This document shows, piece after piece, positions 13,372 through 38,578 of a stretch of DNA of 64,000 nucleotides (the first letter of the stretch is position 1; each line of letters begins with the position of its first letter). Below the pieces are notes generated by a model. It had not been told where the DNA came from. It saw nothing but the letters and a program-made list of their open reading frames with translations, and did not search any database. The DNA lies in NCBI GenBank assembly GCA_964426735.1, contig CAYRRP010000001.1, forward strand, positions 157,226-221,225, in the 5' to 3' direction. The position numbers were made by a program, and so were the translations under genes. The stretch is from an uncultured Candidatus Saccharibacteria bacterium. Its GTDB lineage: Bacteria > Patescibacteriota > Minisyncoccia > Phycocordibacterales > DATDWN01.

Positions 13372-13624
13372 ATATAAAAAAAGAGGTGACTGTTCGCAGC
13401 AGTACAACCTCTCAAGGAAAGCGATGTTCGAAGCAACGCTTTCCAGTATTCGCAAGCACTACGGGTCTGTGTATCCTGCATAGAGCGGATACTCTTTAAT
13501 AATACTCATCAAAGTAAGCTAAGTCAAGTATGCGTTTTGTTTATGGTAACCACAGTACATTTCTAGTAGATGTTACCGTCCTATCCACAAGGGCAACAGA
13601 AAAATATTTGCTATACTTATCTAT

Positions 13625-14080
13625 ATGAATTTTCCTACAGATGTTCTTATAATCGTCGGTATATTTTTAGTCGGTACTCTATTTACTTTTTTCATGGGAA
13701 AAAGTCGCGGTGTCTCGATCATACTTGCTCTGTTTGGATCAATACCTCTTTTCCAATCGTTTCCTTTTACACAACAACTAACTGTAGCCACAGGTGATTT
13801 TGCTCGTTCTATAAATGTAATTGGAATCTTTCTTGTATTCACTATCGGCTTATACTTCTTACTCAATCGCTATGTAGTAGGGGATTTTATCGAAGGCAAC
13901 TTTTTCAAATCAGTGATCTTTGGTATTGCATTTACCGCCATTATTCTTGCATTAGTACACTTTATCCTTCCTTTTGATCCGATTTATGATTTCAAACAAA
14001 ACGTTGATCAGTGGTTCGGAGGAAACTTCGGTATGTTTTGGTGGATACTCGCACCGTTGATGATTTTGTTGTTTGTATAA
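13625..14080 (+). CDS. hypothetical integral membrane protein (4-5 TM helices)
   Basis: highly hydrophobic 151-aa ORF. Confidence 0.5.
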   Translation: MNFPTDVLIIVGIFLVGTLFTFFMGKSRGVSIILALFGSIPLFQSFPFTQQLTVATGDFARSINVIGIFLVFTIGLYFLLNRYVVGDFIEGNFFKSVIFGIAFTAIILALVHFILPFDPIYDFKQNVDQWFGGNFGMFWWILAPLMILLFV

Positions 14081-14182
14081 GGTACTTTTTTAAACTATTT
14101 TTTAGAGAGGGTTCGATAAATGGCTCAATAAAGCCATTTATTTTGATGTTTGTAAAGTCAATAGAAAAACTGTGGATAAGTG

Positions 14183-14210
14183 TTGACAATTTAAATAAAA
14201 GGGGTAGAGT
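14183..14210 (+). promoter_or_regulatory. promoter-like TTGACA-N16-TAGAGT upstream of GC-rich secreted-protein gene
   Basis: same TTGACA/TAGAGT hexamer pair recurs at 21624-21653. Confidence 0.3.
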
Positions 14211-14277
14211 TTATAGTGTAAAAGGGACAGTAAAAAAGATCCCTTAAGTTCATTACAAAGAAAAGGAGGTGGACGCA

Positions 14278-15102
14278 ATGCCCACCAAAAATTTTGCGAT
14301 CGTATTTTTTTTGCTGGTGCTTTTGTGCACCAGCACGTCCGCAACCGCCCAGTTTTTGCCTGGCAATGAACTAAAAAATGTGTTGGGACCCTACCAGAAC
14401 CCCGTTGCGGTGTCTCTGGTTGAAAATGGGGGCACGATTGCCCTCAAGGTTCAGCTCACCGGGCCACAATGCATCCCGAGAATGTCTGCGTTTGCGCAGC
14501 TCGAGCGTCTGATTTCGGGTGACTGGGTACCACAAGGTCCCCAATTACCGGTCCAACTTGGAAACTTCGGTCGAGGTCCACTCGACAAGACGCTCCGGAC
14601 CGCTGGAGTGTTCATGGGATCAAACAACGAAAGTTTCCCGGCGGGCGACTACCGACTAATCAGCTTTGTCTGGTCGATCGGTGACTCAGAAAACACGAAG
14701 TGTCCGGTCTCTCAGTACATCACGTACAAAGAGACTCCCCACCTGCATATTGGTGCCGGCTTCAACGGTAAACTGTCCAGTGTAGGAAAGGCCAGCATCC
14801 CGTCGCTCAACGACGGCAAGTTGGATTTCCAAGCGATTTTGGTAAGTCGTACACGACTAACCATTTTCCAGGAATTCGGTTCCGAAAAAGTCGTCGGGTT
14901 CTCCGAGGATTACCCCGCGGGTAACTCTACGATTCGGACGAATCTCCATCCGGAGTTTCGGCCTGGCCTCTCCATCAAGGTGCACATCCTCGATCTCGAG
15001 TCTGGCGACTCAACTGTCGCCACGCTCTTCGAGCCGACACCGAATGTTCGTTTCAATGCTTTGCCCCGGAATACCGGAGGAAGCCAACCGGAGTGGCAAT
15101 AA
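14278..15102 (+). CDS. secreted hypothetical protein with signal peptide; markedly GC-rich (about 55%), probable horizontal acquisition (start ATG 14278 with AGGAGG SD)
   Basis: composition contrast with flanks read by eye; N-terminal hydrophobic signal FAIVFFLLVLLCTSTSATAQ; own promoter and terminator. Confidence 0.6.
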   Translation: MPTKNFAIVFFLLVLLCTSTSATAQFLPGNELKNVLGPYQNPVAVSLVENGGTIALKVQLTGPQCIPRMSAFAQLERLISGDWVPQGPQLPVQLGNFGRGPLDKTLRTAGVFMGSNNESFPAGDYRLISFVWSIGDSENTKCPVSQYITYKETPHLHIGAGFNGKLSSVGKASIPSLNDGKLDFQAILVSRTRLTIFQEFGSEKVVGFSEDYPAGNSTIRTNLHPEFRPGLSIKVHILDLESGDSTVATLFEPTPNVRFNALPRNTGGSQPEWQ

Positions 15103-15120
15103 TCACTCCATAACAATACA

Positions 15121-15152
15121 GCCGCCACACCCTCCAGGGTCTGGCGGCTTTT
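15121..15152 (+). terminator. rho-independent terminator (GCCGCCAcaccctccagggtcTGGCGGC plus TTTT)
   Basis: read in sequence. Confidence 0.6.
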
Positions 15153-15228
15153 ACCATATTTTTAAATTGAGCCTTATCCACAACTTTAAATTTTAAACAG
15201 TAGTGATTGTCTGTGGTATAATTTACTA

Positions 15229-15729
15229 ATGGGAATAACCAAAAAGATACTACTTATTTTTATTGGATTAATTTTTGTCGTAGCAAGTGGATTTGGTGGT
15301 TTTTATGTAATACAAAAACTTTTTATTACAAAGGCAGACATATTAGATCAACCAAAAGTGAGTACGGTATCTACTATAGAAGTAGAACGTGATGTATATA
15401 ACAAAATTCCAAAAGATTTTCCTAAAAATCTCATTCCTGAAGATGATATAGTTTCAATTATCGAAAGTTTTACAGTATCGGATACCCCAGAAAGAAAGCA
15501 ATACACTGTACGTTATATTAGTAAAAAAAATATTGCTGAAAATCAAAAATATTTTGAAACGTATGTAGCAAAAACCCCTGGTTTTTCTCTGACAACAGAT
15601 TTTTTAACAAATTCAACAACATTCTTATCAATGGGCATACGTAACAAAAAAACAGAAATAAATATTACAGTTAATTTAAATCAACAGTACGGGTATATTG
15701 TTGATGTAACAATGTTGCAACAACTATGA
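15229..15729 (+). CDS. small membrane-anchored protein (N-terminal TM, about 130-aa extracytoplasmic domain); partner of downstream giant gene (TGA/ATG overlap)
   Basis: paralogous to 19371-19847 (shared VESF.V....QYT.RYI.K motif and architecture). Confidence 0.55.
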   Translation: MGITKKILLIFIGLIFVVASGFGGFYVIQKLFITKADILDQPKVSTVSTIEVERDVYNKIPKDFPKNLIPEDDIVSIIESFTVSDTPERKQYTVRYISKKNIAENQKYFETYVAKTPGFSLTTDFLTNSTTFLSMGIRNKKTEINITVNLNQQYGYIVDVTMLQQL

Positions 15730-18700
15730 AAAAAAACTTTTTTGCATTAATAGTTATTTTTTTTATTAGCTTTGGTTTTTTTGATTTACCTGTAGTAGAA
15801 GCTCAGAGTTGTTCAAATGTTGGTTATGATTCTTGTGGAAACTATACGTCTCGGTCTTGTAGTGGTGCTACAAGTTGTTCGGTTACAGATTTAGGAAATG
15901 GATCTTGTTACCAAACATGTACATGTCCAGTTTTAACCCTTCAAGGTTCTAGCTTCAGTGGATGGACATCAGGAACGTTTCAAAATGGACAACAGTTTTG
16001 TACAGCTATGTACGAGGGTCCTGCATGTCAGATAAGTGGTGGTAGTGGAGCATCTATATCTTTTCCTGCATACGCTTGTGGTACTGTAAACAACAATCCT
16101 TCATCAGTATGTAATAACAATGGAATTTGTGAATCTGGAGAAAACAGCACATATTGTCCTCTTGATGGTTGTCCTCCACCAACTTCATCTTTTTTTACAC
16201 TTTCTGTAAGTCCTGCAACAAGATCTGTTCTTAACGGAGAGCTTGCTAATTTCACTCTAACTATTACACCTTCAGTGTCTCCTACAACAGGACTTGGTGA
16301 TGTACGTGCTGTTGGTGCATACACATTACCTGTACCAATTCCTGGATGTCCAAGTGGAGCAACTTGTACATATCAAGGTGGTAGTAACACTATACAAGTT
16401 ACTGAAGATACAACTTCTGGAGGAGTAGATTTTGCTGTAGCAGCATCAAAAGGTGTCATTGTTGCACCTTCAACAGTAAGTCCAGCTACATATCAACTAA
16501 ATTTTTCAGCAGTAAATCCTTTTAACCAAACAAAAACCGCCACCGCCACCCTCATCGTAAGCTCAGGTATAAACGGAGCAACCTGTCTCTCTATCGACTC
16601 TCAAGTAGGAGGTGTATCAACATCATCATTCTCTCCAGGACAACAATTTACTCTTGTTGCACGTCTACGTAATACAGGTACTAAAATATGGGACAACGTA
16701 TATACCAGTGCATCAGATCAAGAACATTTCCTCGGAGCATGGAATCCTGGAGGTGATCCATGGGGTCCAGGTTCTGGCAGAACACGCCTCCCAAACGGTA
16801 CTGCTATACCACCCAATGGGGAAGTAACCTTTACACGTACACTAACTGCACCTTCTACACCAGGTACCTATGATTTTCAGTTTGCTATCGTTGAAGATGC
16901 TGTTCAATGGATCACTGCACCTGGTGCTGTGTGTGTGAAGTCGGGAGGGGTGACGGTGGTTGCTTCTATGCCAAACCTTACTGCAGGTACTGTCACACCA
17001 ACAAGCACAAGTATAAACACTGCAACAACCTTTTCATCCACTATTTCAAACTCAGGTTCAGGATCAACAGGAGCATCTTTCTCAAACTTCTTTCAAGTAG
17101 CAACAGCAGCAAATGGAGGAGGTACTGTAACAGACCTTAGTGCTACCACCATGTCTACTCTCGCATCTGGAGCGACCGGCACAGCCACATCTCCGTCATA
17201 TACCTTTACTACAGCCGGAACATATTCGGTTCGTGCATGTGCAGATAAGACAAATTCATCAAATACTGGTTCAATTAACGAAACTAATGAAAGTGACAAC
17301 TGTGGAAGTTGGACGACAGTCACCGTAGGTAATGGTACAAACAACGCTTCATGTACTGCTATCACACCTTCAAAAACAACCGTAACTCCTGGTGAAGTAT
17401 TTAGTGCGAGTGTGACCATGTACAACAACGGAACAAACACATGGTCTCCAAACGACATGCGTGCTGATGTGAGTGGAGTAAATAACTATCATATTACTGT
17501 ATCACCATGGGCTTCCACTTGGAATTGGGGAAGAGCAGCGGTCTCATCAAACATAAATCCAGGGTCATCAACCACATTTACCATACCGCTTACTGCGCCA
17601 AGCACTGCAGGAACATATAACCTATCAACGCAAATGCTTCAAGAAGGTGTTGAGTGGTTTGGTGCATTATGTAATGCAGGGACAATTACAGTAAGTAACC
17701 CAAATACATGCGATCCTTCTGCGGTAGGAACAAACCAAATGGTTGGATGTGTGTATACAGGAATGAACTTTAACTCACTTGCACCCATATCAGCGTTGAC
17801 AGCTCCAGCTCTCTCAAGTCCTGCTCCATCATCAGCATCACCGTTACCATGGACAAACTGGGGCGGAGGAGGTCCTGGATCACTTACGGATAACTATTCA
17901 GTTCGATGGAAAGGAAATTTTAACTTTTCAGCTGGCAATTATACCTTCAGTGTTGATTCTGATGATGGATCTCGAGCATATTTTGACGACAATGGCGATG
18001 GAAATCCTGATAGTGGATATCTAGTGAGTGCGTGGTATGACCGTGGAAGTGGAGTTGTTGTATCTGGAAGCCCTGTTGCGGTGACAGCTGGAGTACATCG
18101 TCTTGTGTATGAAATGTATGAAAATGGTGGCGGATCAGTGTATAACTTATCATGGACAAGTACCGCACCTTCTCCGATTACGGTAAGTATATCTCCATAC
18201 TATACATCGATCACAAACTATCCAACCATCAGTGACAACAGTATCTACTGGACAACCACTGGAAACCCAGACTCGTGTACCACTTCAGGATCGAGTCCAT
18301 GGAGTACGGCAATCATTGTTCCTATTGCAAGCGGAAATCAATATCAAGGAAACTATCCAGGTACAGGAACATATACATACAACATCACTTGTACAAAATC
18401 AGGTGTGTCAAATGCGACAGCATCAATCACCGTACCTGTATCAAGTACACCTCTTCCGAGTGGAACACTTACTCCAGCTTCTCCGAGCTGTACAATAGCT
18501 TCTGGTGCAAGCTCATGTACTGTAAATCTCTCATGGACAACCACAAACCCTATCGGCACATCAGTACTAACCAGTAATACTTCAAACACAGGAGCATCAG
18601 CACCAAATACAACAGTCTCATCAGGAAACTCTGGGACAAACGTAGCAGTAACGGTGCCATACAGTAGCCGAGTGTTTACCTTGTATAACAACTCGTCACT

Positions 18701-26589: not shown

Positions 26590-26650
26590 ATTTAAAAAAA
26601 GAAAAACCACCACCCGCCGGTGGTCTTTCCGGTTGGTTGGTGGTGGTTTG
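26590..26650 (-). terminator. strong minus-strand rho-independent terminator (CCACCACC...GGTGGTGG hairpin plus T-run) after GC-rich mini-gene
   Basis: read in sequence. Confidence 0.5.
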
Positions 26651-26652
26651 GG

Positions 26653-26889
26653 TCACTTCGCCTTGGGAGGCGGTGTGACCGGTCGATATGTACACGGAGC
26701 AAGCACATCGTCTGGGTCGCAGTGCAACCCAAACCCCTGTAGCCGAGCTGGCTGCTCGACTTTTCTGACTGGAACTGGCGTCTTGCCGAATTGAGAAAAC
26801 TTCGGCTCACCAATCAAACACCAGAGAAACCCCGCGATTCCAAAAAACAGTATGACCCACGAAAGAGGATCTTTTACTTTTACTTTCAT
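26653..26889 (-). CDS. GC-rich small membrane protein (78 aa, MKVKVKDPLSWVILFFGIAGFLWCLIG...), AAAGGAGAG SD
   Basis: internal start with strong SD; local GC about 58%; ORF-track long form 26653-27126 probably over-extended. Confidence 0.4.
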   Translation of the reverse strand: MKVKVKDPLSWVILFFGIAGFLWCLIGEPKFSQFGKTPVPVRKVEQPARLQGFGLHCDPDDVLAPCTYRPVTPPPKAK

Positions 26890-27383
26890 TTTCTCTCCTT
26901 TTGTTACACTCAGAGACCTAAATACTTGGCCGTCGCCGAGGCGACGAACGCCAAAATCGGGTACGGACACAGGAAAAGGGGTATCAGGAGTGTACGCTCT
27001 GGCTCTTTCAGACGCGTATGAAAAGCGACAATTACTGTCGACAAAATCAAAATTGTTGTCAGGAAAGCTCCTATTACAAAAAAAACAGCTGAGATCATTT
27101 GATCCCTCCCATACATACAGTACCATACTTTATATATATGTCAAAACTCTTAAAACTTTTCTTTTTATAGCATATATGTTATCTTACATACTGCACATGC
27201 AGGACATGTGCTCGTGGGAAATTTCAACACTCCCGCGATAACCCGCAACGTGAGACCTCGAAGTTTGAGGTCTCACTCCACCACTACGCAACGCCTCAGG
27301 ATCCATCTTCCAATCACTGAGGCCTTGCTTGGTGGTTTTTTGTTTCAACTAACTTCGAATGCACTGAGGAAGTACTTTCTCAT

Positions 27384-28489: not shown

Positions 28490-29374
28490 ATGGACAAGAG
28501 TATATTGATCGTTGAAAAACCCACACTGACCGAAACCTCGGCAAATGAAGACATCTGGCTGAATCAGAGTAATTTGGAGTTGGCGACATATGCAGCTCAA
28601 TATCTGGGCTATACAAAGCTTTCGGATAGGGTTGCTGCACGTCAAACCGATTATCACAAAAAAGTCGAGGTTTTTAACCAGACGAATCGATTACCTAAAG
28701 CCTTGTTGGCTGCAGAAATCGATACTTTCTCATTGGACTCAGTGAGTAAATACCAAAATACAATGATCCGACAAGCTTGGATGAAGTTCATTCTTAATCC
28801 AGGAGAGTGCTATATGTGGGCCCATGTGTACTTCTTGACGCCAGTCATAGCAACCCTCATGTTTCTACTTGGCTGGCTCAATGAATGGCAGTCGGTTCTA
28901 CTGGCGACACTATTTCAGTTACCACTAGCACGTTCCATAACAAAAGAGTTGGCTTCATACTGGAAGGAAGATAAAGGGTTTCTACTATGGGCTTCCTGTC
29001 TTGCCCTGTCTCCAATTACGAGCCTGATCCTTGTAGTCCTAGGCTACGGAAAAGGCTGGTCTGCTGTTACTTTCATTGCCGCTCTTTTTTGTGTGTTTTG
29101 TTTCTACGGTGAAGCTATCAAGCAACTCAGAAACACTAAAATTCACTGGGTGCGAATTCCAGTCAAGTCATACAACGAAGAAATTCCTCTTTTCGTGATC
29201 AGCAAGATGAGGCAGATTCACGAACTGTGTCCGTCAGCGGAGTTTTTTGTTGAAAAACTAGAGGCAGATATTTATCTGCCCGACCCGTTCCTTGTTGTAA
29301 CAAACCCACCCGTAAGACAAGAATTCTACGTTGAGGTTTGGGATGAACCGAAGTTTGAAGCAAAACATACGTAG
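28490..29374 (+). CDS. hypothetical polytopic membrane protein (moderately GC-rich)
   Basis: ACGGAGG SD; several hydrophobic helices. Confidence 0.45.
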   Translation: MDKSILIVEKPTLTETSANEDIWLNQSNLELATYAAQYLGYTKLSDRVAARQTDYHKKVEVFNQTNRLPKALLAAEIDTFSLDSVSKYQNTMIRQAWMKFILNPGECYMWAHVYFLTPVIATLMFLLGWLNEWQSVLLATLFQLPLARSITKELASYWKEDKGFLLWASCLALSPITSLILVVLGYGKGWSAVTFIAALFCVFCFYGEAIKQLRNTKIHWVRIPVKSYNEEIPLFVISKMRQIHELCPSAEFFVEKLEADIYLPDPFLVVTNPPVRQEFYVEVWDEPKFEAKHT

Positions 29375-29436
29375 TTATCGAAGGTCTGAGTGGTGATAAC
29401 ACCACTCAGGCCTTTTACTTTACATAAAAAGTCTCT

Positions 29437-30048
29437 TTACTTGAGCTTGATGTGATTTTTCTTTAGTTCATGATGAACTTTTTGATAATCAGGAATCGTT
29501 TTTTCGACCAAAGCCCAAAACTTTTTTGAATGATTGAGTTGTCCGAGGTGGCAGAGCTCATGCACGATGATATAGTCCGCATGATGCGGTGGCAAAAGTG
29601 CGATTTTATAATTAAAATTCAAATTCCCTTTTCTCGAACAACTCCCCCATCGTGTCTTTGTGTTTTTGATACTGATCCGCCTAATCTTAAATGTATAAAA
29701 AGTATTGAAATACTTGAGACGCTCAGTCACCAAGACTCGTGCCTTTTCTTTGTATACGAGATACCGTTCCCTTTCTTGTTTTTTAGTGAGCTTTTGAGCC
29801 TGTATTCGCCCTTTTCCAAGCTTCTCCTCCAACGCCCTAAAATGCTTAATTTTTGCCAAAATCCACCCTGCCCGACTTTGTAGCATCTGCTCGACAAAAG
29901 CCTCACCCAAGCGCCCCCAGAGCCTCTCTGGCACGGTCAAAGAGACCTCCCCACCAATACTTACCGTCACCCGCACCGCCTTCGCCTGAGTGCTAATTTT
30001 AAGGGTATATGAGATTGTTTGAGATCCGAGGTGGATTTGCTTTTGCAC
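29437..30048 (-). CDS. DUF45/YgjP-like (COG1451, M48-related) zinc metallohydrolase
   Basis: WGSCS...DYIIVHELCHLGQLNHSKKFWALV (HExxH). Confidence 0.75.
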   Translation of the reverse strand: MQKQIHLGSQTISYTLKISTQAKAVRVTVSIGGEVSLTVPERLWGRLGEAFVEQMLQSRAGWILAKIKHFRALEEKLGKGRIQAQKLTKKQERERYLVYKEKARVLVTERLKYFNTFYTFKIRRISIKNTKTRWGSCSRKGNLNFNYKIALLPPHHADYIIVHELCHLGQLNHSKKFWALVEKTIPDYQKVHHELKKNHIKLK

Positions 30049-30050
30049 AA

Positions 30051-30821
30051 TTATTGTATTTCTAAAAATAATGGTAAGTGGTCTGAAACTATATCTGGTA
30101 AAACTTCAAAATTTTTTACTTCAATATCATTAGATGTCAAAATATAATCTGCAAATTTTTCTTCTTTTGGATAATGCTCACTTCGTGTAGAAGTGACTTT
30201 ATATTTCTTAACGAGGTTCACCATATCTTCCTCAAGCACAGCAATTGCATTACCATCATGTACAACATTAAAATCGCCACATAAAATATTTTTCTGTGCA
30301 CTACTTCCAAAAAATTCTTTAATCTTTTGAGACTGCTCCAGTCTTTCTGGCGTATCTTTTTTATGGGAGTTACGTTGCCATAGTCCGTGTAAATTTAAAA
30401 TAGTAAAAAATGAAGAGTCTGTATTTGCAATTTTTACCCACTGACACCGACCAGAAACAAGATCTCCACCTTTATGATACGGACTCTCCGGATGACTCCT
30501 GAAGCCACCATGATCAAGAACTTGATATTTTTTTCTTACAAAGATAACCTGCCCACAACCAACATCAGGTGACAACATCTCACCATGAAAATAGGATTCT
30601 TCTGGATCACGATATATGTAGGCATTAAAGTCACTCAAGATATTTTGTAGTTCAGAAAAAAGATTAAGCCTACCACCTTGAATGGGCGAAAATTCTGCAT
30701 CAGACCCAAACAAGCAATCTTGAAAACAAAACACATCAACATCATCTTTTTGTTTTGCGACAAATTGCATAAGAGGCTCAAACAACTTCCCTCCCCATAA
30801 GTTTAATGTGATGAGTTTCAT
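30051..30821 (-). CDS. endonuclease/exonuclease/phosphatase (EEP) family protein
   Basis: MKLITLNLWGG, LCGDFN, SDHLP motifs. Confidence 0.7.
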   Translation of the reverse strand: MKLITLNLWGGKLFEPLMQFVAKQKDDVDVFCFQDCLFGSDAEFSPIQGGRLNLFSELQNILSDFNAYIYRDPEESYFHGEMLSPDVGCGQVIFVRKKYQVLDHGGFRSHPESPYHKGGDLVSGRCQWVKIANTDSSFFTILNLHGLWQRNSHKKDTPERLEQSQKIKEFFGSSAQKNILCGDFNVVHDGNAIAVLEEDMVNLVKKYKVTSTRSEHYPKEEKFADYILTSNDIEVKNFEVLPDIVSDHLPLFLEIQ

Positions 30822-30861
30822 AATACTTATTTTCTTAAATTAATTTAAGAAAATTAATTTT

Positions 30862-32121
30862 TTATAAAAATTTTCTTAGAGATTTTCCTAATTTTTCAAT
30901 AACCCCCACAACAAGAGCATTGCCCATAATAAACGCTCTTTTTGTATCAGGAACTTTCTCACCATCAATCGTTAGTGCTGTATGGTTATCTGGAAACATA
31001 TTTAACCGCTCTAATTCTACAGGAGTAAGTCTACGTAATTTTCCGGACTTAGTTTTGATTACATGTTTAAAACGGGAAGGAGAACTTCCACCTTCACCGG
31101 TCACTATTGTTCTTGAAGGTTTATCTAATGAATCAGGAAAAATCATTGGCCCTTCAGCATAATGGTATTCAAAACCATCTTTTGATTTTCTTTCCTCTTT
31201 CTTACCTCCTTTTAGATACTCCCACTGTTTTTTATCTTTATCTTTTATGAAAAATTCTGGGGAAATTTTTGATTCATCATGAATAAGCACATCTTTGAGT
31301 AACATATGCTCACCCTCATAAACAGGTATTGTTTTTACAGTATGAACTTTTCCGTCAATCATAATACCTGTATTTTGAAAAGGACTAATTGTCGGTTTGT
31401 TGGAAGAAAAATTATCAGATATATCTTGCAAGTTTTCTCCTAGTTCAAAACTCTTTAATTCTACATCTCCTTCCTTTACTTTAAATGCGCTTGCAATGAC
31501 ACCAGTATTATAAATCCAATTACTTATATCTTTCTCTTTTTTAAGTAGATTAAAAACTTTACTACCTTTTTTATAACCTAAAATAAACACTCTTCTTCTT
31601 CTTTGAGGTAGCCCATAGTCTGCAGCATTAATTACTCGCCACTCAACAATATAACCTAACTCAGAAAGTGATGCCAACATCACGGCAAAATCTCGACCTC
31701 TTTGTTTTGCAGGTGACTTTAATAAACGATCAACGTTTTCTAGCATCAGGAAATCTGGTGCCTTTGTCTTTTTTTTCTTTAAAATATTATAAATTGACCA
31801 CCAGAGGACACCTTTTTTCCCATAAATACCTTCCGCTTGATTTAAAGTTCTTGCAACAGAATAATCTTGACAAGGAAATCCACCGACAAGCAAGTCGTGG
31901 TCTGGAATCTGTTGAAAATCTTTTTCGACGACTTCTTGAATATCTTCACAAGAGTGACCTTCCGAACCAAAGTTTCTTTTATATATTTGAGAAGCGTATT
32001 GTTTAGTGACTCCTGGCTCCCACTGACTACTCCATATAGTCTTAAATTCAGCAGTGGCTTCGAGCCCCAAACGAAAACCACCTACACCAGCAAATAACTC
32101 CACGACTCTTATTTTTTTCAT
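30862..32121 (-). CDS. DNA (cytosine-5)-methyltransferase (type II R-M, M subunit)
   Basis: motif I ELFAGVGGF, motif IV GGFPCQDYS, ENV, QRRRRVFILG. Confidence 0.9.
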   Translation of the reverse strand: MKKIRVVELFAGVGGFRLGLEATAEFKTIWSSQWEPGVTKQYASQIYKRNFGSEGHSCEDIQEVVEKDFQQIPDHDLLVGGFPCQDYSVARTLNQAEGIYGKKGVLWWSIYNILKKKKTKAPDFLMLENVDRLLKSPAKQRGRDFAVMLASLSELGYIVEWRVINAADYGLPQRRRRVFILGYKKGSKVFNLLKKEKDISNWIYNTGVIASAFKVKEGDVELKSFELGENLQDISDNFSSNKPTISPFQNTGIMIDGKVHTVKTIPVYEGEHMLLKDVLIHDESKISPEFFIKDKDKKQWEYLKGGKKEERKSKDGFEYHYAEGPMIFPDSLDKPSRTIVTGEGGSSPSRFKHVIKTKSGKLRRLTPVELERLNMFPDNHTALTIDGEKVPDTKRAFIMGNALVVGVIEKLGKSLRKFL

Positions 32122-32158
32122 ACCGCAATATTATCAGATAAATATAAGTTGATCAAGC

Positions 32159-33553
32159 TTAATCTTGTTTGTTTTCTATGGCTTGTTGAATATATTTCGC
32201 ATTAAGCCAAAAACACCGCTTCATTTCTTGAGTTTTTTGAGGTGTCTCAACTGTATCTTGTGCATTTTTACCATGCGGACGTACATGTGCAACACTACTA
32301 TCTTTAATTTTTGGTAGCTTTGTGTACTCACCATCACGTATACAGTCAATTGTTTTTTGCCATACACGTTCAGCCTCGGGAAGGTCTTTTGTTGGAAAAT
32401 TCCAAAATGTCACTTTTTTCAAAATAATATCATCGTTATTTTTTTGTTTTTGAAACACTACAAATAAAAACTTCTTTGTTTCCAATTGTAAATGAAAGTC
32501 TGACATCACTTCTTCCTCATCATCTTGCCATACTTGAGTAATTAAATCTTTGTAATCAAAGGCAGGAAACGAGATTGATTCTTTTAAAGTCCCTGTATGT
32601 TCTAAAGTAATTACTTTAAGAGTTATGTTTGCCTTATCAAACTCCTCAATTTTATCTGAATCTACATCAAGAATTCGGTTTACAATAAGTCTTTTATAGT
32701 TTTTTGCTATATTTGTAAGATTATCATCTAGATTAGAAAGTATCTCCTTATCTGTTTTGCCAATAAACCTAGAAAATCTTTCTTTAATAGTATCTTCTAT
32801 TGTTTCGATTCGTCTTTGTTTTTTAAAAATTGAATCAGTATTTGATTTATTTCCCAGTAGTTTCGTTTGAACAATATAGTTTATATATTGCTGTTTAAAA
32901 GAAAAAGCTCGTGGTTTTGCTGGTATACGTGCACCACCTGGTTGGTCTCTAACAGTACGACTATTTGCTGCTTTAGTACAAGCACCTAAATAATAAGTGT
33001 CTCCTTCTGATAACAAATGAGCTTCACCTCGTTTAATTTTAGCAACAATATACTCCCAATCTTTTTGAATTTGAAAAACGTCTTCGTTAGAAAGGTTTTC
33101 TATTAGATTAAGTAAGTGAACAAACTTAAATTTATAATCCAAAATACTTTGACTCTGCACCCACAAGTAAAACATAAGTAGCAAGGTTTTGTTTTTTTTC
33201 AAAAATGAACTACTTTCCCAAGTTTCTTTTACTATTTCATCATAGTTTATCATCGAAAACACAAGACGTTCCTTTGAAGAATACTGATTTTTAGTATGTT
33301 TTTTAAGAGGTGTAGTTTTTAACTCAACTCCAGCAATATTAAAATCTGGTTGATTTAGATTGTCATTTTTCTTACCAAAAATATAAAATTCAATTAATTG
33401 ACCAAGGAGACCTTTCTTTTTATCTTTATGTGTAAAGATTTCTTTCTCAATAGTCTCGATTTCTTCTTTGGATACAACCTCACGTAAAGATTTATTTAGT
33501 ATAATTTTCGCTTGTTCTAGAACTTGTTCTTTTGTTTGGTAATCTTTATTCAT
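32159..33553 (-). CDS. Sau3AI/MutH-family restriction endonuclease (type II R-M, R subunit; GATC-type by family)
   Basis: KGLLGQLIEFYIFG...QPDFNIAGVELKTTPLK matches MutH/Sau3AI catalytic D..E.K region; 464 aa similar to Sau3AI; adjacent C5-MTase. Confidence 0.7.
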   Translation of the reverse strand: MNKDYQTKEQVLEQAKIILNKSLREVVSKEEIETIEKEIFTHKDKKKGLLGQLIEFYIFGKKNDNLNQPDFNIAGVELKTTPLKKHTKNQYSSKERLVFSMINYDEIVKETWESSSFLKKNKTLLLMFYLWVQSQSILDYKFKFVHLLNLIENLSNEDVFQIQKDWEYIVAKIKRGEAHLLSEGDTYYLGACTKAANSRTVRDQPGGARIPAKPRAFSFKQQYINYIVQTKLLGNKSNTDSIFKKQRRIETIEDTIKERFSRFIGKTDKEILSNLDDNLTNIAKNYKRLIVNRILDVDSDKIEEFDKANITLKVITLEHTGTLKESISFPAFDYKDLITQVWQDDEEEVMSDFHLQLETKKFLFVVFQKQKNNDDIILKKVTFWNFPTKDLPEAERVWQKTIDCIRDGEYTKLPKIKDSSVAHVRPHGKNAQDTVETPQKTQEMKRCFWLNAKYIQQAIENKQD

Positions 33554-33563
33554 ACAACTTTTA

Positions 33564-34229
33564 TTATATATATGTTTTTATATCTCTAAAACCATTACTA
33601 TCTGCCGAAACAATAATATGACTAATAAGAGTAATGTCCAAAATTTTACTAGCGTATATTAATTTTTTCGTAATCTCAATATCATCATGAGATGGTTCTA
33701 AATCTCCAGAAGGGTGATTATGTGCAACGATGATTGAAGCAGCGTTGTTTTTAATAGCACCCTCAAATACTTCACGTGGATGAACCAGGCTTTCATTTAG
33801 AGTTCCAATTGAAATAATCTCTCTTTTTATTTCTTGATTTCTGCTATCTAAGTAAAAAACAACAAAATGTTCTTTCTTACTTCCTCTAATATCTTCCATC
33901 CGCTCCCAAACATCTTTTGGAGAAAGTAAGATAGAATTTTGCTTACCTTTTAGAATACGCTTTCCGAGTTCAAAACATGCCAGTATCTCACAAGCTTTAA
34001 CAACACCTAATCCATGAATCTTTTTTAACTCATCAATAGTAACATCTAAAATTCTTTCTCCTTCAAACTCTTTTAGAATTTTTTGAGATAGTTTTAAAAC
34101 ATTTAAATCTTTTGTGCCAGTACGAAGTAAGATTGCCAAGAGTTCTGAATCAGATAATTTCCCTGGACCATATTTTTCCAACTTTTCCCTTGGTCTATCT
34201 AATTTAGGAATGTCTTTGATTTTTAGCAT
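33564..34229 (-). CDS. radC: RadC-like JAB-domain protein
   Basis: HNHPSGDLEPSHDD JAMM motif, N-terminal HhH. Confidence 0.85.
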   Translation of the reverse strand: MLKIKDIPKLDRPREKLEKYGPGKLSDSELLAILLRTGTKDLNVLKLSQKILKEFEGERILDVTIDELKKIHGLGVVKACEILACFELGKRILKGKQNSILLSPKDVWERMEDIRGSKKEHFVVFYLDSRNQEIKREIISIGTLNESLVHPREVFEGAIKNNAASIIVAHNHPSGDLEPSHDDIEITKKLIYASKILDITLISHIIVSADSNGFRDIKTYI

Positions 34230-34252
34230 ATTTTAAATCCTATTTATAAGTA

Positions 34253-34747
34253 TTAAAATTTAGCAGAACTTCTTACTTTTGCTTCAAAAATTTTAACAAC
34301 TTTTTCTTTCGGACAAATTCTTATGTTATAAGGTATTTTGTACTTCTTACTACATGGGACGCAAATCCATTTATTAACTTCTTCATCTAAAACATAATCA
34401 CATTTTTGACAATAAGGACCTCCCACCCATATCTTTCTATCTTTAAAATTTTTATCAAAACCAAGAAATACATGCCAGTTAACTTTGTACAACTCTTTAA
34501 CACCATAATCATTTAAAATATTTTTTGGTTTTTTGTCGTTAAATAAGCGAGGTTTTAATTTAAATCGTTTATTTAAATTAAAAAAAATAATAACCAGTAC
34601 TGTTAGTAATAAAACTAACCATACAGGGACAGAATATTTAATCACCGTTCTAACACCATCCTTTAACCAGGATACTATTATTACACTAAAAACCCCAAAA
34701 ATAATTTTCCAATGATCATATACAATTGAAAAAAAATTTCTATCCAT
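34253..34747 (-). CDS. hypothetical membrane protein with C-terminal zinc-ribbon (CxxC...CxxC)
   Basis: two TM helices then CQKCDYV...CVPCSKK. Confidence 0.4.
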   Translation of the reverse strand: MDRNFFSIVYDHWKIIFGVFSVIIVSWLKDGVRTVIKYSVPVWLVLLLTVLVIIFFNLNKRFKLKPRLFNDKKPKNILNDYGVKELYKVNWHVFLGFDKNFKDRKIWVGGPYCQKCDYVLDEEVNKWICVPCSKKYKIPYNIRICPKEKVVKIFEAKVRSSAKF

Positions 34748-34754
34748 GGTTAGC

Positions 34755-34994
34755 TTATTTAATTCTCAAAAGAATTTGACGTAAGAAGGACTCTAAATTA
34801 TTAATTTTATTTTCTAAGTTTTCTATTTTTTTTTCAACTTTTCCAATCTGTGCACCTGAATTAAAGTACTCCAACACACCCACAGGGTTTTTACAAATTG
34901 AACATTGAACAAAAAATAGCTTATAATTTGAACCAATCGGCACCTGCTCTACTAATTCAAACGAAAAACTTTTACAGTGTGCACATTTTGACAT
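34755..34994 (-). CDS. small zinc-ribbon plus coiled-coil protein (79 aa)
   Basis: CAHCKS...CSICKN then heptad-like KKIENLENKINNLESFL. Confidence 0.4.
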   Translation of the reverse strand: MSKCAHCKSFSFELVEQVPIGSNYKLFFVQCSICKNPVGVLEYFNSGAQIGKVEKKIENLENKINNLESFLRQILLRIK

Positions 34995-35099
34995 GTTTTT
35001 ATAATTAGTATTTTATTAAATATATTCTATATATTAGCATTTAAACTATACCTGTTAGCACTTGCAATTTTTATAAAATATGGTATTAAGAGTTAAGAA

Positions 35100-35978
35100 A
35101 TGGAGAAAGTGATGGTCAGCAAAGATACTTACGGACTTGGTCCAGTCAATGGACATGCTGTGGGGCGAATTCTGAAGGAGGCTGTACGGAGAGCCACTGT
35201 GGCTATCCGCAATGAACGCCTCATGTTTGAGGCTCACACGAAGAAAAGTTACAGTGGCACCATGGATGATGTATTCACCAGTGCCGACACCAAGGCTCAA
35301 GAGATTTATCTCCGAACCTTTCGTGAATGCTTCCCTTTCTGTGGCGTGATTGGTGAGGAAAATTCACTCATCATCAAACCCAAGAAAGAGTGCTCGGTAT
35401 ACTTTACCGTCGACCCGCTCGATGGAACAAAAGCCTTCATCCGGCGTCAGTCCGATGGTGTGGGTACAATGGTGGCAATGGTGCACAAAGGGAAAGTCAT
35501 CTCTGCGTATGTCGGCGACATCAACACTGAAGAGGTCTACGGCTACCGCCCTGGATCTAACAAGGTACATCGGATTACCCGCCTCGACACCTTTGAAAAA
35601 CTGAGTGATACGGGTAAGGGTGACTTGAGCAAGACGTACGCCTTGCTCCGTGATCCGATCGATCAGTACTCATCCACCACCAGAAACACGCTCGGTCAGT
35701 TCAAGAATTACGAGGTGACAGGTTCGAGCATCGGCATCTGGATGGCAAAACTCTGGAAAGGAGAGGTCGGCGCTTTATTTCTGAAGCCTGGCTGGGAAAC
35801 GCCCTGGGATTCGACGCCGATTATCGGGATTTCTTTGAAGCTTGGATACGTGTTCCTTAGGCCGACAACAAAAGGCTCTTGGAAAAAGTACAACCCTGTC
35901 CTCCCGATGGAAAAATACCGTCGGGAACATGACACCATGGTCGTCCACAAACACGACTTGAAGTTCCTAGGTCTTTAA
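35100..35978 (+). CDS. inositol monophosphatase / CysQ-family phosphatase
   Basis: FTVDPLDGTKAFI and WDSTPIIGI motifs; GC about 50%. Confidence 0.7.
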   Translation: MEKVMVSKDTYGLGPVNGHAVGRILKEAVRRATVAIRNERLMFEAHTKKSYSGTMDDVFTSADTKAQEIYLRTFRECFPFCGVIGEENSLIIKPKKECSVYFTVDPLDGTKAFIRRQSDGVGTMVAMVHKGKVISAYVGDINTEEVYGYRPGSNKVHRITRLDTFEKLSDTGKGDLSKTYALLRDPIDQYSSTTRNTLGQFKNYEVTGSSIGIWMAKLWKGEVGALFLKPGWETPWDSTPIIGISLKLGYVFLRPTTKGSWKKYNPVLPMEKYRREHDTMVVHKHDLKFLGL

Positions 35979-35985
35979 TGTTCCG

Positions 35986-36017
35986 AAATGACCCGCACTT
36001 GTTGCGGGTCATTTTTA
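35986..36017 (+). terminator. rho-independent terminator after IMPase gene
   Basis: GACCCGCActtgtTGCGGGTC plus ATTTTTAT. Confidence 0.55.
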
Positions 36018-36020
36018 TCC

Positions 36021-36068
36021 TTTACACCCCCTTTTAAATATGATTAATTTATGAGGAGATTGTTCTTA
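36021..36068 (+). promoter_or_regulatory. promoter (TTTACA-N16-ATTAAT) plus 33-bp 5'-UTR segment AAATATGATTAATTTATGAGGAGATTGTTCTTA, exactly repeated at 37381-37413
   Basis: exact 33-bp repeat and same -35 geometry read in sequence. Confidence 0.5.
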
Positions 36069-36094: not shown

Positions 36095-36646
36095 GTGACA
36101 ATGACATTCGATACTTACAAAACAGTTGTTCGAGAAAATTCTGGCTTTAGAGAAGTGGTGGAAGCGCTTGCAGGCCACTTTGCACTGGAGGTACCTGGAG
36201 GTTTTCCCACCCTTACGAATTGGTTTAGTCGCCACTATGTAGCATGGTCAACAACCTTCATTCACCAGAGTTACGATGATGTGCCCGCATCAGAAAACTG
36301 GACGGACTCACTATGTTTTCTTTCATTGATCGATCTAATGAAAAGCATAGGCACAGTGGCTCATCGTATAACTGAAGAGGAAAATGATCCCGTCTCATTA
36401 TTCAAGGGTGTCATCAGACGTTCCGAGAAGGGTTGTTTTCTTTACTTCCAGAACATTTTCACGGTGAAGCGCACCGAAACTAATAGTTACCATATAACCA
36501 TCCATAAGTACCCATCGGAGTTTTTTCACTTCATTGTTATGGATGATTCTGAGCTTCTCAGCTTCGTCGTCCGCAACCAGATAATGATTAATGGCGTCCA
36601 ACTGGAACTTCCGCCAGAAGCACACCTCAGTGACTTTACCGACTAA
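36095..36646 (+). CDS. hypothetical protein P1 (183 aa; GTG start), first of three tandem genes of similar size
   Basis: own promoter and palindromic terminator (36656-36693); shares NW(F/V)..R and C-terminal INGV.L motifs with neighbours. Confidence 0.5.
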   Translation: MTMTFDTYKTVVRENSGFREVVEALAGHFALEVPGGFPTLTNWFSRHYVAWSTTFIHQSYDDVPASENWTDSLCFLSLIDLMKSIGTVAHRITEEENDPVSLFKGVIRRSEKGCFLYFQNIFTVKRTETNSYHITIHKYPSEFFHFIVMDDSELLSFVVRNQIMINGVQLELPPEAHLSDFTD

Positions 36647-36750: not shown

Positions 36751-37317
36751 ATGGATGTGAGAGATTTTCGGGTCATGACTCAAAGACATGCCCCATGGTT
36801 GCTCAATTGGGTTGCATCTCGAACAGGTCAATTTAGACTGCGTACTGAAACAACCAAGTTTTTCGAAGCACTAATTGCGCCAAAAGTTAAAGCTATCATT
36901 GAAAAACCATGGCAGACTTTGGACATTAACGAAAATCCTTCCCCGCAAATCAAAGGTAGTTCATATGGAGACATCTTCATTCGACACTACTACACAGTAA
37001 TATGGAGAAAAAACGACGAGGACACAGTCCAGCATACCGGTGCAGTTGATCTTGCTGATCTTAATGTCGACAAACTTTTGATGCGTATGTTTGACGATTG
37101 CCAGCAAAATGACACTCTGTGGGTTATGGCGGTTGTGAAGACGGTTTATGAAATTAACAAAACCCGTCTTCTTGAACCGAAACACACATTTGTGATATAT
37201 CCTTGCGAAGAACGCAATTTCATGTCTTGGGTCGATCAACACAAGGAGTCGATCAATCAAACCCTCGCTCAACGACAACTCACGCTTTCGAGCTACAGTG
37301 TCGTGGCTCTCAGGTAG
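36751..37317 (+). CDS. hypothetical protein P2 (188 aa)
   Basis: GGAGG SD; terminator 37325-37362; weak shared motifs with P1/P3. Confidence 0.5.
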   Translation: MDVRDFRVMTQRHAPWLLNWVASRTGQFRLRTETTKFFEALIAPKVKAIIEKPWQTLDINENPSPQIKGSSYGDIFIRHYYTVIWRKNDEDTVQHTGAVDLADLNVDKLLMRMFDDCQQNDTLWVMAVVKTVYEINKTRLLEPKHTFVIYPCEERNFMSWVDQHKESINQTLAQRQLTLSSYSVVALR

Positions 37318-37324
37318 CAACAAA

Positions 37325-37362
37325 ACACCCCATCCGAGCTTCCGGATGGGGTGTAGTTTTTT
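37325..37362 (+). terminator. terminator ACACCCCATCCGagcttcCGGATGGGGTGT plus T6
   Basis: read in sequence. Confidence 0.6.
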
Positions 37363-37365
37363 ACC

Positions 37366-37413
37366 TTTACACTCAACACTAAATATGATTAATTTATGAG
37401 GAGATTGTTCTTA
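37366..37413 (+). promoter_or_regulatory. second copy of promoter/5'-UTR module (TTTACA-N16-ATTAAT plus identical 33 bp)
   Basis: read in sequence. Confidence 0.5.
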
Positions 37414-37426
37414 CGAAAGGTGTCTT

Positions 37427-37987
37427 GTGATAATAAATTTTTTTGAAGAATTTCCTGATGAGATCAAAGCATGGGTGAGGAGAGTTGTTTTGCAGATTGT
37501 GCGTTATTATAACAGCACACAACGACAATCAGAAGATACTCTGGACGTAGAAAAGTTTTTTAAACATTATCTGGAAACTTCCACATTTCAAAAAAGCTCC
37601 ACTTTCCCATCACCTATCAACGGAAGAAGAAATGCTTTTTTTCTTTTGTGGCAAGATGCTTCATGTAGTCATCCTACCCTTACACATAGCTTAATCCCTG
37701 GGACTACCTTATTTGCAGGAGATGAACCTCATAAGCTAGTACTGGATATCGCAGAGCACTGCTTGAGAGCCAACACTTCTGCTCACTTTATTGCGGTTAT
37801 ACATGTCGTATATCATCGCAACAGACAAAGCTACAACCATAACATCGATGTACATCTGCACACCGATGAGTATTATCACGAAGTACTCAGACACAACCCT
37901 GACCTGGCACGGAAACTCACAAATAGAGGCACACTCATCAATGGGGTACCCTTGAGGATTCCACAGAGACAAACTAACTCAATTTGA
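37427..37987 (+). CDS. hypothetical protein P3 (186 aa; GTG start)
   Basis: shares promoter module, terminator type and C-terminal LINGVPL motif with P1. Confidence 0.5.
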   Translation: MIINFFEEFPDEIKAWVRRVVLQIVRYYNSTQRQSEDTLDVEKFFKHYLETSTFQKSSTFPSPINGRRNAFFLLWQDASCSHPTLTHSLIPGTTLFAGDEPHKLVLDIAEHCLRANTSAHFIAVIHVVYHRNRQSYNHNIDVHLHTDEYYHEVLRHNPDLARKLTNRGTLINGVPLRIPQRQTNSI

Positions 37988-38029: not shown

Positions 38030-38578
38030 TCATTTCCCTTTCAATTTCTCCACCTCCTCTACCAGTTTTTTGAGTGTGTTTTGAATCATATCGAGATCAA
38101 TCTCTTTCTGCTTTTCTGCTTTCTGCTGCATAGTATCTGTGTCTTTTTCAATCTCATCGACATCAGTCTGGATTTCTTCGATATCTTCAGAAATTTCATC
38201 GACATCTTCCTGGATCACATCAATATCCTTTTCGATACCTTCAACATCTTCTTGGATTTCATCAACATTTTCCTGAATAACATCGATATCTTTTTCAATT
38301 CCCTCGACGTCTTCTTGGATTTCATCGACATCTTCTTTAATCTCTTCAATATCTTCCTCAACATCCTCCAAACTTTCTGTGTTTTGATTGACCGTCATCT
38401 GAATAAAAATAGCGAGATAGATCGCCTCAAGTGAGACAAGTGTCGTAAGGACAAGAAGTATCGTATCAAAAGCTACATCAAAGAAATACAATGAAAACAT
38501 TGCAATAAAAAAGACAGTATGAGCGACTACTGATGCTTTTGAGCCGACCCATTGTGTAAATTTTTTGTCCCAATTCAT
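38030..38578 (-). CDS. DUF1003-like membrane protein with C-terminal acidic coiled-coil tandem repeats
   Basis: N-terminal FD....LL.L..SL.A..LA..IQMT.NQ pattern like DUF1003; 22-aa repeats EDVEGIEKDIDVIQE(N/D)VDEI. Confidence 0.55.
   Translation of the reverse strand: MNWDKKFTQWVGSKASVVAHTVFFIAMFSLYFFDVAFDTILLVLTTLVSLEAIYLAIFIQMTVNQNTESLEDVEEDIEEIKEDVDEIQEDVEGIEKDIDVIQENVDEIQEDVEGIEKDIDVIQEDVDEISEDIEEIQTDVDEIEKDTDTMQQKAEKQKEIDLDMIQNTLKKLVEEVEKLKGK
38150..38346. repeat. 66-bp tandem repeats (about 3 units) inside DUF1003-like gene
   Basis: read in sequence. Confidence 0.7.

Follow-up and report, generated by a model that had tools for sequence, protein, structure and literature searches.

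What joins a RadC protein, a restriction-modification pair and several small genes in one AT-rich part of a bacterial chromosome? This question is raised by a 64,000-nt stretch of contig CAYRRP010000001.1 from an uncultured Candidatus Saccharibacteria bacterium, which was analysed at its full length (the window; all coordinates refer to it). Bacteria of the Candidate Phyla Radiation (CPR, Patescibacteria) have very small genomes and mostly lack CRISPR. An initial annotation described the region 29437-34994 as a mosaic of acquired DNA with various cargo genes, possibly a decayed integrative element. According to our analysis, the segment 30051-35050 is probably a horizontally acquired defence island in a CPR/Patescibacteria-type chromosome. 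Its core is a cassette of three genes, coding for RadC, a Sau3AI-family restriction endonuclease and a C5-cytosine DNA methyltransferase, which moves between CPR lineages as one unit.

The RadC-endonuclease-methylase cassette

The three genes of the cassette are located on the minus strand. The lead gene (33564..34229) encodes a full-length RadC with an N-terminal UPF0758_N domain of the HhH type (PF20582, residues 4-80) and a JAB domain (PF04002, residues 103-210). It scores 231.9 bits against the equivalog model NF000642 (cut-off 180). The JAB metal motif HNHPSGx6SHDD is intact, with HNHPSGDLEPSHDD starting at residue 170; no PADLOC match was obtained for RadC. Downstream follow the gene of the endonuclease (32159..33553, minus strand, 464 aa) and the gene of its cognate partner, the methylase (30862..32121, minus strand, 419 aa).

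A scan based on the endonuclease, with one genome per species, gave 23 loci with endonucleases 65-77% identical to that of the window, all of them from records that are titled CPR or plainly mislabelled. The methylase gene is found directly downstream of the endonuclease gene in every one of the 23 loci that reaches that far. RadC is encoded upstream on the same strand, directly or closely, in 19 of the 23 loci and shows 72-82% identity to the RadC of the window (58% in L025). The other four loci (L016, L017, L020 and L021) contain the endonuclease-methylase pair without an adjacent RadC. Nucleotide homology between the window and the 23 loci begins at, or a few bases from, the RadC start codon and stops at the methylase stop codon, and the genes outside these limits are mostly unrelated from locus to locus. 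The cassette has a GC content of 28-37% and the host flanks have 27-47%; in the GC-richer hosts, the GC content falls exactly at the RadC start codon. In loci with common syntenic flank genes, these genes are 31-64% identical, compared to 75-85% for RadC, endonuclease and methylase. Between the window and L005, a DUF45 gene and a META-domain gene are 43% identical, while RadC reaches 79%, the endonuclease 75% and the methylase 69%. Over all cassette copies, conservation amounts to ~80% for RadC, ~74% for the endonuclease and ~72% for the methylase. The low GC content of the cassette in varied hosts, the identity of the three proteins above that of syntenic genes and the unrelated flanks together show that RadC, endonuclease and methylase have spread horizontally as a unit. 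RadC had been listed as frequent cargo of integrative elements; judged from these comparisons, it is not incidental cargo but consistently leads a cassette that recurs in more than 35 loci of CPR-type bacteria. A mosaic radC with a crossover inside the gene was considered and rejected, since the whole gene is AT-rich. A search of the viral contig collection gave no relatives of the endonuclease, of RadC or of two further island proteins, EEP and TMZn164, which are described below. Our literature searches found no paper that connects RadC with hsd genes or, in CPR, with restriction systems.

The initial annotation had assigned the 464-aa protein to the Sau3AI/MutH family and placed it immediately upstream of a C5-methyltransferase on the same strand; both assignments were borne out by comparison with hidden Markov models (HMMs) and by the confirmed reading frames. 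The endonuclease matches NCBIfam NF040973, the equivalog model of the Sau3AI family type II restriction endonucleases, with 431.4 bits (cut-off 300), whereby residues 5-459 align to model positions 1-474 of 475. Residues 24-411 align over ~390 residues to the Sau3AI structure PDB 4pxg (E=3.5e-55), and residues 250-414 to the structures of the Sau3AI C-terminal domain, 2reu/7xm0 (~2e-12). Its N-terminal domain matches MutH (PF02976, 9e-29) and contains D70, E77 and K79 of the D-x6-E-x-K motif in PDFNIAGVELK, which we take to be the same residue numbers as those of the catalytic residues of E. coli MutH. The PADLOC model REase_II is matched with 2e-81. The protein is composed of an N-terminal MutH-like catalytic domain and a C-terminal effector domain of the Sau3AI type. 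The methylase exceeds the cut-offs of PF00145 (8e-67, 226 bits) and TIGR00675 (242 bits) and matches the PADLOC model MTase_II PDLC03329 at full length with 540 bits. Its motifs are complete (I, FAGVGG10; IV, PCQ83; VI, ENV128; VIII, QRRRR173; X, GNA400). Methylases that neighbour Sau3AI-family endonucleases in three Clostridium/Mesomycoplasma records share 45-49% identity with it from end to end and 32-36% within the variable region.

The pair shares with the Sau3AI system of Staphylococcus aureus 3A and its relatives in Firmicutes and Mycoplasma the two MutH-like domains, the D-x6-E-x-K motif and the partnership with a Dcm-type C5-methyltransferase. It differs from the characterised Sau3AI enzymes by the low identity of its endonuclease (only ~35-40%). 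Unlike the Firmicutes/Mycoplasma loci examined, which have no RadC, the cassette shows a fixed order of endonuclease and methylase with RadC ahead. Taken alone, the pair is an ordinary new member of the Sau3AI family. In two of the loci (L024, 10001-11398; L025, 10001-11217), the Sau3AI-type endonuclease is broken into two open reading frames (ORFs) next to an intact methylase; in these loci, the endonuclease is decaying and its methylase is left as an orphan.

From membership in a family in which the characterised enzymes cleave GATC, from methylase homology and from site avoidance, we infer GATC as the predicted target of the endonuclease. GATC is the most depleted 4-bp palindrome over 22 cassettes, with 86 sites observed and 199 expected (observed/expected ratio, O/E, 0.43), compared to 0.73 in the flanks; the 22 cassettes are related, so that this count corresponds to fewer than 22 independent tests. 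The endonuclease and RadC genes of the window contain no GATC site at all. The initial annotation had suggested a test for under-representation of GATC; the window as a whole shows only mild depletion (O/E 0.74). This mild depletion is consistent with a fairly recent acquisition.

Genes inserted behind RadC

Between RadC and the endonuclease, roughly half of the loci carry one or two additional genes of the same direction, packed stop-to-start. These inserts comprise Gabija GajA and GajB (L019), an OLD nuclease (L010, L015, L031), an AIPR/AbiU protein (L006, L011, L024), an SNF2 helicase with a 461-aa protein (L005, L022), an AAA_15 ATPase (L009), an ORC/Cdc6-like ATPase (L023), an SF1 helicase (L033) and a PDC-M43A-like protein together with a HATPase_c protein (L027). 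L006 and L009 have upstream chromosomal genes in common and carry different inserts. Unrelated defence systems are clustered here at one site, and the inserts differ between genomes with common flanks, as is characteristic of a defence hotspot. No integron-like junction motifs were detected at the 3' end of RadC or 5' of the endonuclease, neither in loci with inserts nor in those without. The last ~12 residues of RadC are variable in all loci, and in many of them the following gene starts in overlap with the RadC stop codon.

A metagenome scan with RadC gave 80 loci with 61-82% identity, among them 38 non-redundant loci with at least 1.5 kb of downstream sequence. A locus was counted as positive if restriction-modification, toxin-antitoxin or abortive-infection genes occurred within the first four co-directional downstream genes. 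Where RadC is at least 70% identical, the Sau3AI-type pair is located downstream (16/19 loci). Where RadC is 62-68% identical, other defence genes take this place (17/19 loci), mostly type I hsdM/hsdS/hsdR genes and furthermore type III and type IIG systems, Phd-ParE, Fic, AIPR and a Schlafen/AlbA2 ATPase. In total, 36 of the 38 non-redundant loci are defence-positive, a number that describes one RadC clade and not all CPR. The enrichment is directional: PADLOC families match at most 3 of 77 proteins each upstream of RadC, but 12/65 (REase_II) and 11/65 (MTase_II) downstream. It follows that the 3' side of radC is strongly preferred for restriction-type immunity in this RadC clade. RadC relatives of 61-69% identity match the GC content of their hosts (e.g., 56/56% and 51/53%) and for this reason look native. 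One sub-clade of RadC has been incorporated into a mobile cassette.

Two further observations concern the genes around RadC. In several loci, a gene for a protein with an HTH and a SocA/Panacea domain, similar to antitoxins, is found with a small partner gene upstream of RadC (L004, 6688-7780; L009, 6168-7301; L006, 7248-7532). The recurrence of such genes indicates that defence or toxin-antitoxin genes can flank RadC on its 5' side too, like the Zn-ribbon pair of the window. In addition, the insert consisting of the 461-aa protein and the SNF2-family helicase, which resembles ZorD/DpdE/DrmD, is located between RadC and the endonuclease in L005 (6630-9994) and L022 (6591-9982) and after the methylase in L016 (12782-16011). 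The 461-aa protein has no Pfam or PADLOC match, and the two genes are a candidate for an uncharacterised defence system.

Defence islands and hotspots bounded by conserved genes are described for the E. coli pan-genome (PMC10121019), for P2/P4 elements (PMC9122126) and for Acinetobacter and Pseudomonas (PMC11723918, PMC12629846). The CPR loci resemble them in their fixed conserved frame with interchangeable defence systems inside and in the different inserts at the same site, as in L006 and L009. In contrast to these hotspots, the frame of the cassette is itself mobile and a defence system, and phages, satellites and integrases play no part. In the literature searched, we found no description of such a hotspot in CPR bacteria.

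Borders of the island and its remaining genes

The array 29437-34994 consists of seven minus-strand ORFs, all of them co-directional and separated by gaps of 2-40 nt, as confirmed by checking the ORF list at these coordinates. Six of these genes fill the island completely. Its GC content (31.3%, compared to 40.4% and 39.6% in the remainder of the window on the two sides) and the GC profile agree with the AT-rich, acquired nature that had been proposed, and 33564-35000, described before as extremely AT-rich, has 28.9% GC. The left border is an AT-rich divergent intergenic region (34995..35099), which is presumed to be the promoter region from the sequence reading and the GC profile. Beyond it lies an inositol-monophosphatase-like gene (35100-35978, plus strand) with 50% GC. 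The right border is sharp: at 30050 the stop codon of the EEP gene meets the GTG start of the DUF45 gene, and the GC content then rises to ~50%. The immediate neighbours of the island are unusually GC-rich for this genome and sharpen the contrast. The window is chromosomal, with genes for DnaK, GluRS, asparagine synthase and an ABC transporter among others. The closest relatives of its genes come from metagenome-assembled-genome records labelled CPR/Patescibacteria, and the same contig is present in three sequencing runs (SRR14271372, SRR14271373 and SRR14271366).

In agreement with the initial annotation, neither the seven ORFs nor their neighbours contain an integrase, recombinase or transposase domain in Pfam or NCBIfam. 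The att-like repeats for which a search around 29400-35050 had been suggested were not recovered; direct and inverted repeat searches gave only short pairs of low identity at chance level. Scans for tRNAs and Rfam families at the gathering threshold found none across the 64-kb window. The promoter and terminator scan was uninformative, since the number of promoter-like matches (33, with 22±4 expected) is not above the AT-rich background and no terminator was found inside the array.

Upstream of RadC, the window contains two small genes. Zn79 (34755..34994, minus strand), the first gene of the array, encodes a 79-aa Zn-ribbon protein (CAHC...CSIC) with a C-terminal coiled coil. Its partner TMZn164 (34253..34747, minus strand) encodes a 164-aa membrane protein with an N-terminal hydrophobic region, including a strong segment at residues 34-62, and, at its C-terminus, a Zn-ribbon with C113/C116/C129/C132 and the invariant motif KYKIPYNIRICP. 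Each of the two proteins contains two CxxC pairs and neither matches a Pfam, NCBIfam or PADLOC family. The AlphaFold model of TMZn164 is poor, with a predicted local distance difference test (pLDDT) score of 44. Both proteins are rare, with four to six clusters in 5.8 billion proteins (4 for Zn79); a full HMM search with TMZn164 gave 67 clusters (50% identity) at E<=1e-3 among 1.84 billion representatives. Zn79 and TMZn164 are adjacent at every occurrence of Zn79 that was found, and the Zn79 homologue is located directly upstream of the TMZn164 homologue in eight fetched loci (L107, L108, L109, L110, L112, L113, L117 and L118; ~6 non-redundant). The pair stands between hsdM and hsdS of type I systems in L107-109, L110 and L112, and in L107 RadC and a Phd-ParE pair precede the entire type I operon. 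In L113, it is located directly upstream of RadC, as in the window. L118 is a 4-kb contig on which the pair occurs with a Rep gene and a DUF2726 protein. Distant members of TMZn164 were found beside a C5-methylase (L111) and beside a C5-methylase and a ThaI endonuclease (L121), in the latter case preceded by a different small protein with a double CxxC.

The Zn-ribbon proteins had been regarded as generic cargo, instead of which they form a rare conserved pair recurring inside restriction-modification operons. Such a gene context is typical of an accessory module that is built into restriction operons. The pair is perhaps a self-contained module of this kind, similar to abortive-infection or toxin-antitoxin systems, as its context would suggest. 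The anticodon nuclease PrrC, embedded in the EcoprrI hsd locus, is a known accessory gene within a type I restriction operon. Like embedded accessory defence genes of this kind, Zn79-TMZn164 is inserted between hsdM and hsdS, in three independent loci. In the Pfam, NCBIfam and PADLOC comparisons, however, the pair resembles no known embedded gene in sequence or domains, and in the window it lies upstream of RadC and a type II system.

Downstream of the methylase gene, the island ends with the EEP gene (30051..30821, minus strand, 256 aa), named after the endonuclease/exonuclease/phosphatase superfamily. The protein matches PF03372 over residues 4-248 (4e-9, 36.9 bits, cut-off 24.5) with the SDH of the C-terminal catalytic His from residue 246, and weakly PF14529, 'endonuclease-reverse transcriptase' (7e-5). 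Its structure model is poor (pLDDT 46), and the PADLOC, NCBIfam and PDB sequence searches with EEP, the small proteins and DUF45 were uninformative. Of the earlier name 'EEP nuclease', membership in the superfamily stands, while nuclease is an over-call. The only relative among ~100 loci is a 42% identical protein in L011, encoded three genes past the methylase. From what these searches support, EEP is AT-rich island cargo outside the conserved frame and can be named only by its superfamily. A conserved EEP-DUF45 pair was rejected, because the EEP homologue of L011 is followed by a winged-helix protein and not by DUF45. The region of L011 downstream of the methylase (13118-17093) encodes an RVT_1 reverse transcriptase (448 aa), a 341-aa protein, the EEP homologue and the winged-helix protein; the reverse transcriptase and EEP genes may represent a retroelement-like or a defence-associated reverse transcriptase module.

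The last gene of the array (29437..30048, minus strand) encodes a YgjP-like/DUF45 HExxH metallohydrolase of 203 aa. It matches PF01863 with 1e-40 and 140 bits (cut-off 26), covering only profile positions 91-207 of 207, with HELCH from residue 163. The family calls made before for RadC (NF000642), the Zn-ribbon proteins (two CxxC pairs each) and DUF45 (PF01863) could all be upheld, as could the GC-rich start of the DUF45 gene (50% in the first 210 nt, 39% in the remainder). Its membership in the island could not: the gene has host-like values of 43% GC and 0.48 GC at the third codon position (GC3), and it is syntenic with the META-domain gene in the distant relative L005. In L005, L014 and L025, DUF45 homologues recur at a distance of 3-8 kb on the downstream side of the methylase. 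These data are consistent with DUF45 being the resident right-hand neighbour of the site in one host lineage. Together with its 43% identity and synteny in L005, compared to 69-79% for the three cassette proteins, the host-like GC content places the end of the island at 30050. Given the 2-nt gap, DUF45 may be co-transcribed with the island.

Several features next to the island were noted in addition. Three tandem genes for ~185-aa proteins (36095-36646, 36751-37317 and 37427-37987, plus strand) have no Pfam match and show ~18% mutual identity. A 57-nt direct repeat (36012-36068 and 37357-37413, 86% identical) lies just 5' of the first and the third of them. The three genes look like a rapidly diverging tandem family beside the island, with the repeat as an apparent common leader or promoter. 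The gene at 38030-38578 (minus strand) encodes a 182-aa protein with an N-terminal membrane segment and a highly acidic, repetitive coiled coil ('DVDEIQEDVEGIEKDI' repeats), whose DUF948-like similarity is below the threshold. On the other side, a perfect 10-bp inverted repeat, CTGAGTGGTG-TTAT-CACCACTCAG, is located at 29386-29409 between the DUF45 gene and the convergent gene 28490-29374. It is probably a shared terminator hairpin, as read from the sequence, although the terminator scan did not report it. A GC-rich region (26620-27380, up to 48%) has ORFs overlapping on both strands; its sole content is a 157-aa ORF without a family.

Origin of the island and the role of RadC

The methylase of the cassette would most likely produce GAT(m5C) and so shield the host DNA, as expected for a member of its family. 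By its family membership, the endonuclease, with its MutH-like catalytic domain and second effector domain, would most likely cut unmodified GATC in incoming DNA. RadC is most likely the leader and anchor of the defence hotspot, co-transcribed and co-transferred with the pair and placed outside the restriction chemistry. As the promoter-proximal gene, it could give an expression context, with the slot just behind it taking up further defence modules in other genomes. The copy in the window would have acquired the Zn79-TMZn164 module upstream of RadC and the EEP gene downstream, with DUF45 as a resident gene.

Several points weigh against this interpretation. For GC3, the island genes have low values (0.18-0.25), which still fall within the lower tail for the window genes (mean 0.33, sd 0.09). 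No mechanism of movement was found, that is, no recombinase, repeats or conserved junction sequence, and the array is apparently operon-like as judged from gene arrangement. The specificity for GATC is derived from family membership and site avoidance, the depletion is mild over the window as a whole, and the cassettes in which it is strong are related. All loci were picked by similarity to this endonuclease or this RadC, and their counts are restricted to one RadC clade accordingly. Moreover, RadC is better conserved than endonuclease and methylase and intact in every copy. A selected function would account for its conservation and intactness no less well than passive hitch-hiking.

Two other explanations for the origin of the island have to be considered. 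If radC were a housekeeping gene adjoining an ancestral CPR restriction system, both inherited vertically, the similarity of the three proteins would reflect purifying selection and the AT-richness would be gene-specific. The position of the island GC3 inside the range of the window genes would agree with this, as would the RadC relatives of 61-69% identity that match the GC content of their hosts and the several loci with common DUF45/META or upstream genes. We consider it most unlikely, because the cassette keeps a GC content of 28-37% even in hosts of 42-47%, with the step exactly at the RadC start, the three proteins are 75-85% identical next to syntenic neighbours with 31-64%, the flanks are otherwise unrelated among the loci, and the labels of the cassette-bearing records span a wide variety of CPR groups. 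The initial annotation suggested a decayed element. If an integrative or conjugative element had lost its recombinase here, its miscellaneous cargo would be the pair, RadC, the two Zn-ribbon proteins, EEP and DUF45. The AT-rich segment with its sharp borders would be in line with such an element; short RadC-like proteins are known as cargo of mobile elements (PMC12458937), and a relative of the Zn-ribbon pair is located on the small Rep-encoding contig L118. Integrase, transposase, att repeat and tRNA are all absent from the locus, however, and the 23 homologous loci showed no conserved ends. For endonuclease, RadC, EEP and TMZn164, the viral contig collection gave no relatives, RadC is the full-length HhH and JAB protein and not the short form of mobile elements, and DUF45 belongs to the host backbone. 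A decayed element is very unlikely in our view, and the pattern found instead corresponds to a defence island or hotspot whose inserts can be exchanged.

A different question is whether RadC takes part in the function of the cassette. As a DNA-binding (HhH) JAB protein it might process nucleic acids in cooperation with restriction systems, acting on restriction products or incoming single-stranded DNA, or it might limit self-damage in a new host. A working role would explain why RadC is retained at the head of many different restriction operons. In all cassette copies, RadC is intact and better conserved than its neighbours (~80% compared to ~74% and ~72%). RadC and the pair are transferred together, in many loci the RadC stop codon and the next start overlap, and RadC precedes type I, II, III and IIG systems. 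The Zn-ribbon pair connects to both RadC and restriction operons, and RadC/ArdB 'antirestriction' modules exist on mobile elements (PMC12458937). On the other hand, 4 of the 23 loci contain the pair without an adjacent RadC, and the Sau3AI-family loci of Firmicutes and Mycoplasma examined have none. One partner for mechanistically unrelated systems (restriction-modification, toxin-antitoxin and Abi) is less economical than a positional account. RadC has no PADLOC match and no established biochemical function. A working role of RadC in the cassette is therefore a tentative alternative, which we consider possible but unlikely. The same doubt applies to a broader proposal, in which the full-length RadC of CPR would be, instead of a stray 'DNA repair' gene, a dedicated partner or gatekeeper of restriction-type immunity, heading the mobile cassette as well as type I, III and IIG operons and contributing a nucleic-acid-processing step to defence or to a safe start of these systems in the host, while the Zn-ribbon pair would be a new module of the abortive-infection or toxin-antitoxin type.

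RadC is also known from the other side of this conflict. RadC/ArdB 'antirestriction' moron modules of mobile elements (PMC12458937) and RadC domains of polyvalent proteins have been described, and the RadC JAB domain was proposed to process nucleic acids (PMC5512222). These cases have in common with the cassette that a RadC-family JAB protein is tied genomically to restriction and anti-restriction conflict. They are different in that RadC occurs there as a short JAB-only protein or as part of a fusion, carried by conjugative elements and prophages on the side of the attacker, whereas the RadC of the window is a full-length HhH and JAB protein of the 'housekeeping' form (NF000642) at the head of the defender's operon. 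In Staphylococcus aureus, radC is an integration hotspot of Tn554-family transposons (PMC12889061), and in both cases foreign DNA arrives repeatedly at the radC locus. Unlike Tn554, which disrupts radC by means of the recombinases TnpA/B/C, the insertions in CPR are located downstream of an intact radC and no recombinase is present. An insertion of the Tn554 type was rejected for the window, where radC is full length and tnpA/tnpB/tnpC-type recombinase genes are absent. A full-length RadC at the head of restriction operons is described in none of these works, and our literature searches gave no report of one.

What may be gained here is a mobile frame that accepts inserts and a Zn-ribbon pair embedded in restriction operons, both of them leads from comparative genomics rather than demonstrated mechanisms. 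The frame of RadC and the endonuclease-methylase pair collects defence systems in CPR and could serve as bait for new defence genes. Several inserts lack a known domain; examples are the 461-aa protein encoded with the SNF2 helicase and the ORC-like ATPase. The Zn-ribbon pair, rare and sharply delimited, is a candidate for a new type of module accessory to restriction operons. RadC is a widespread and conserved protein, which is induced during competence in several model bacteria, and to our knowledge it is still without a known function. The very strong and directional linkage of RadC to restriction systems (36/38 loci) is a concrete and testable lead. If true, a role of RadC as a partner or gatekeeper of restriction immunity would be the first functional context for this long-enigmatic family.

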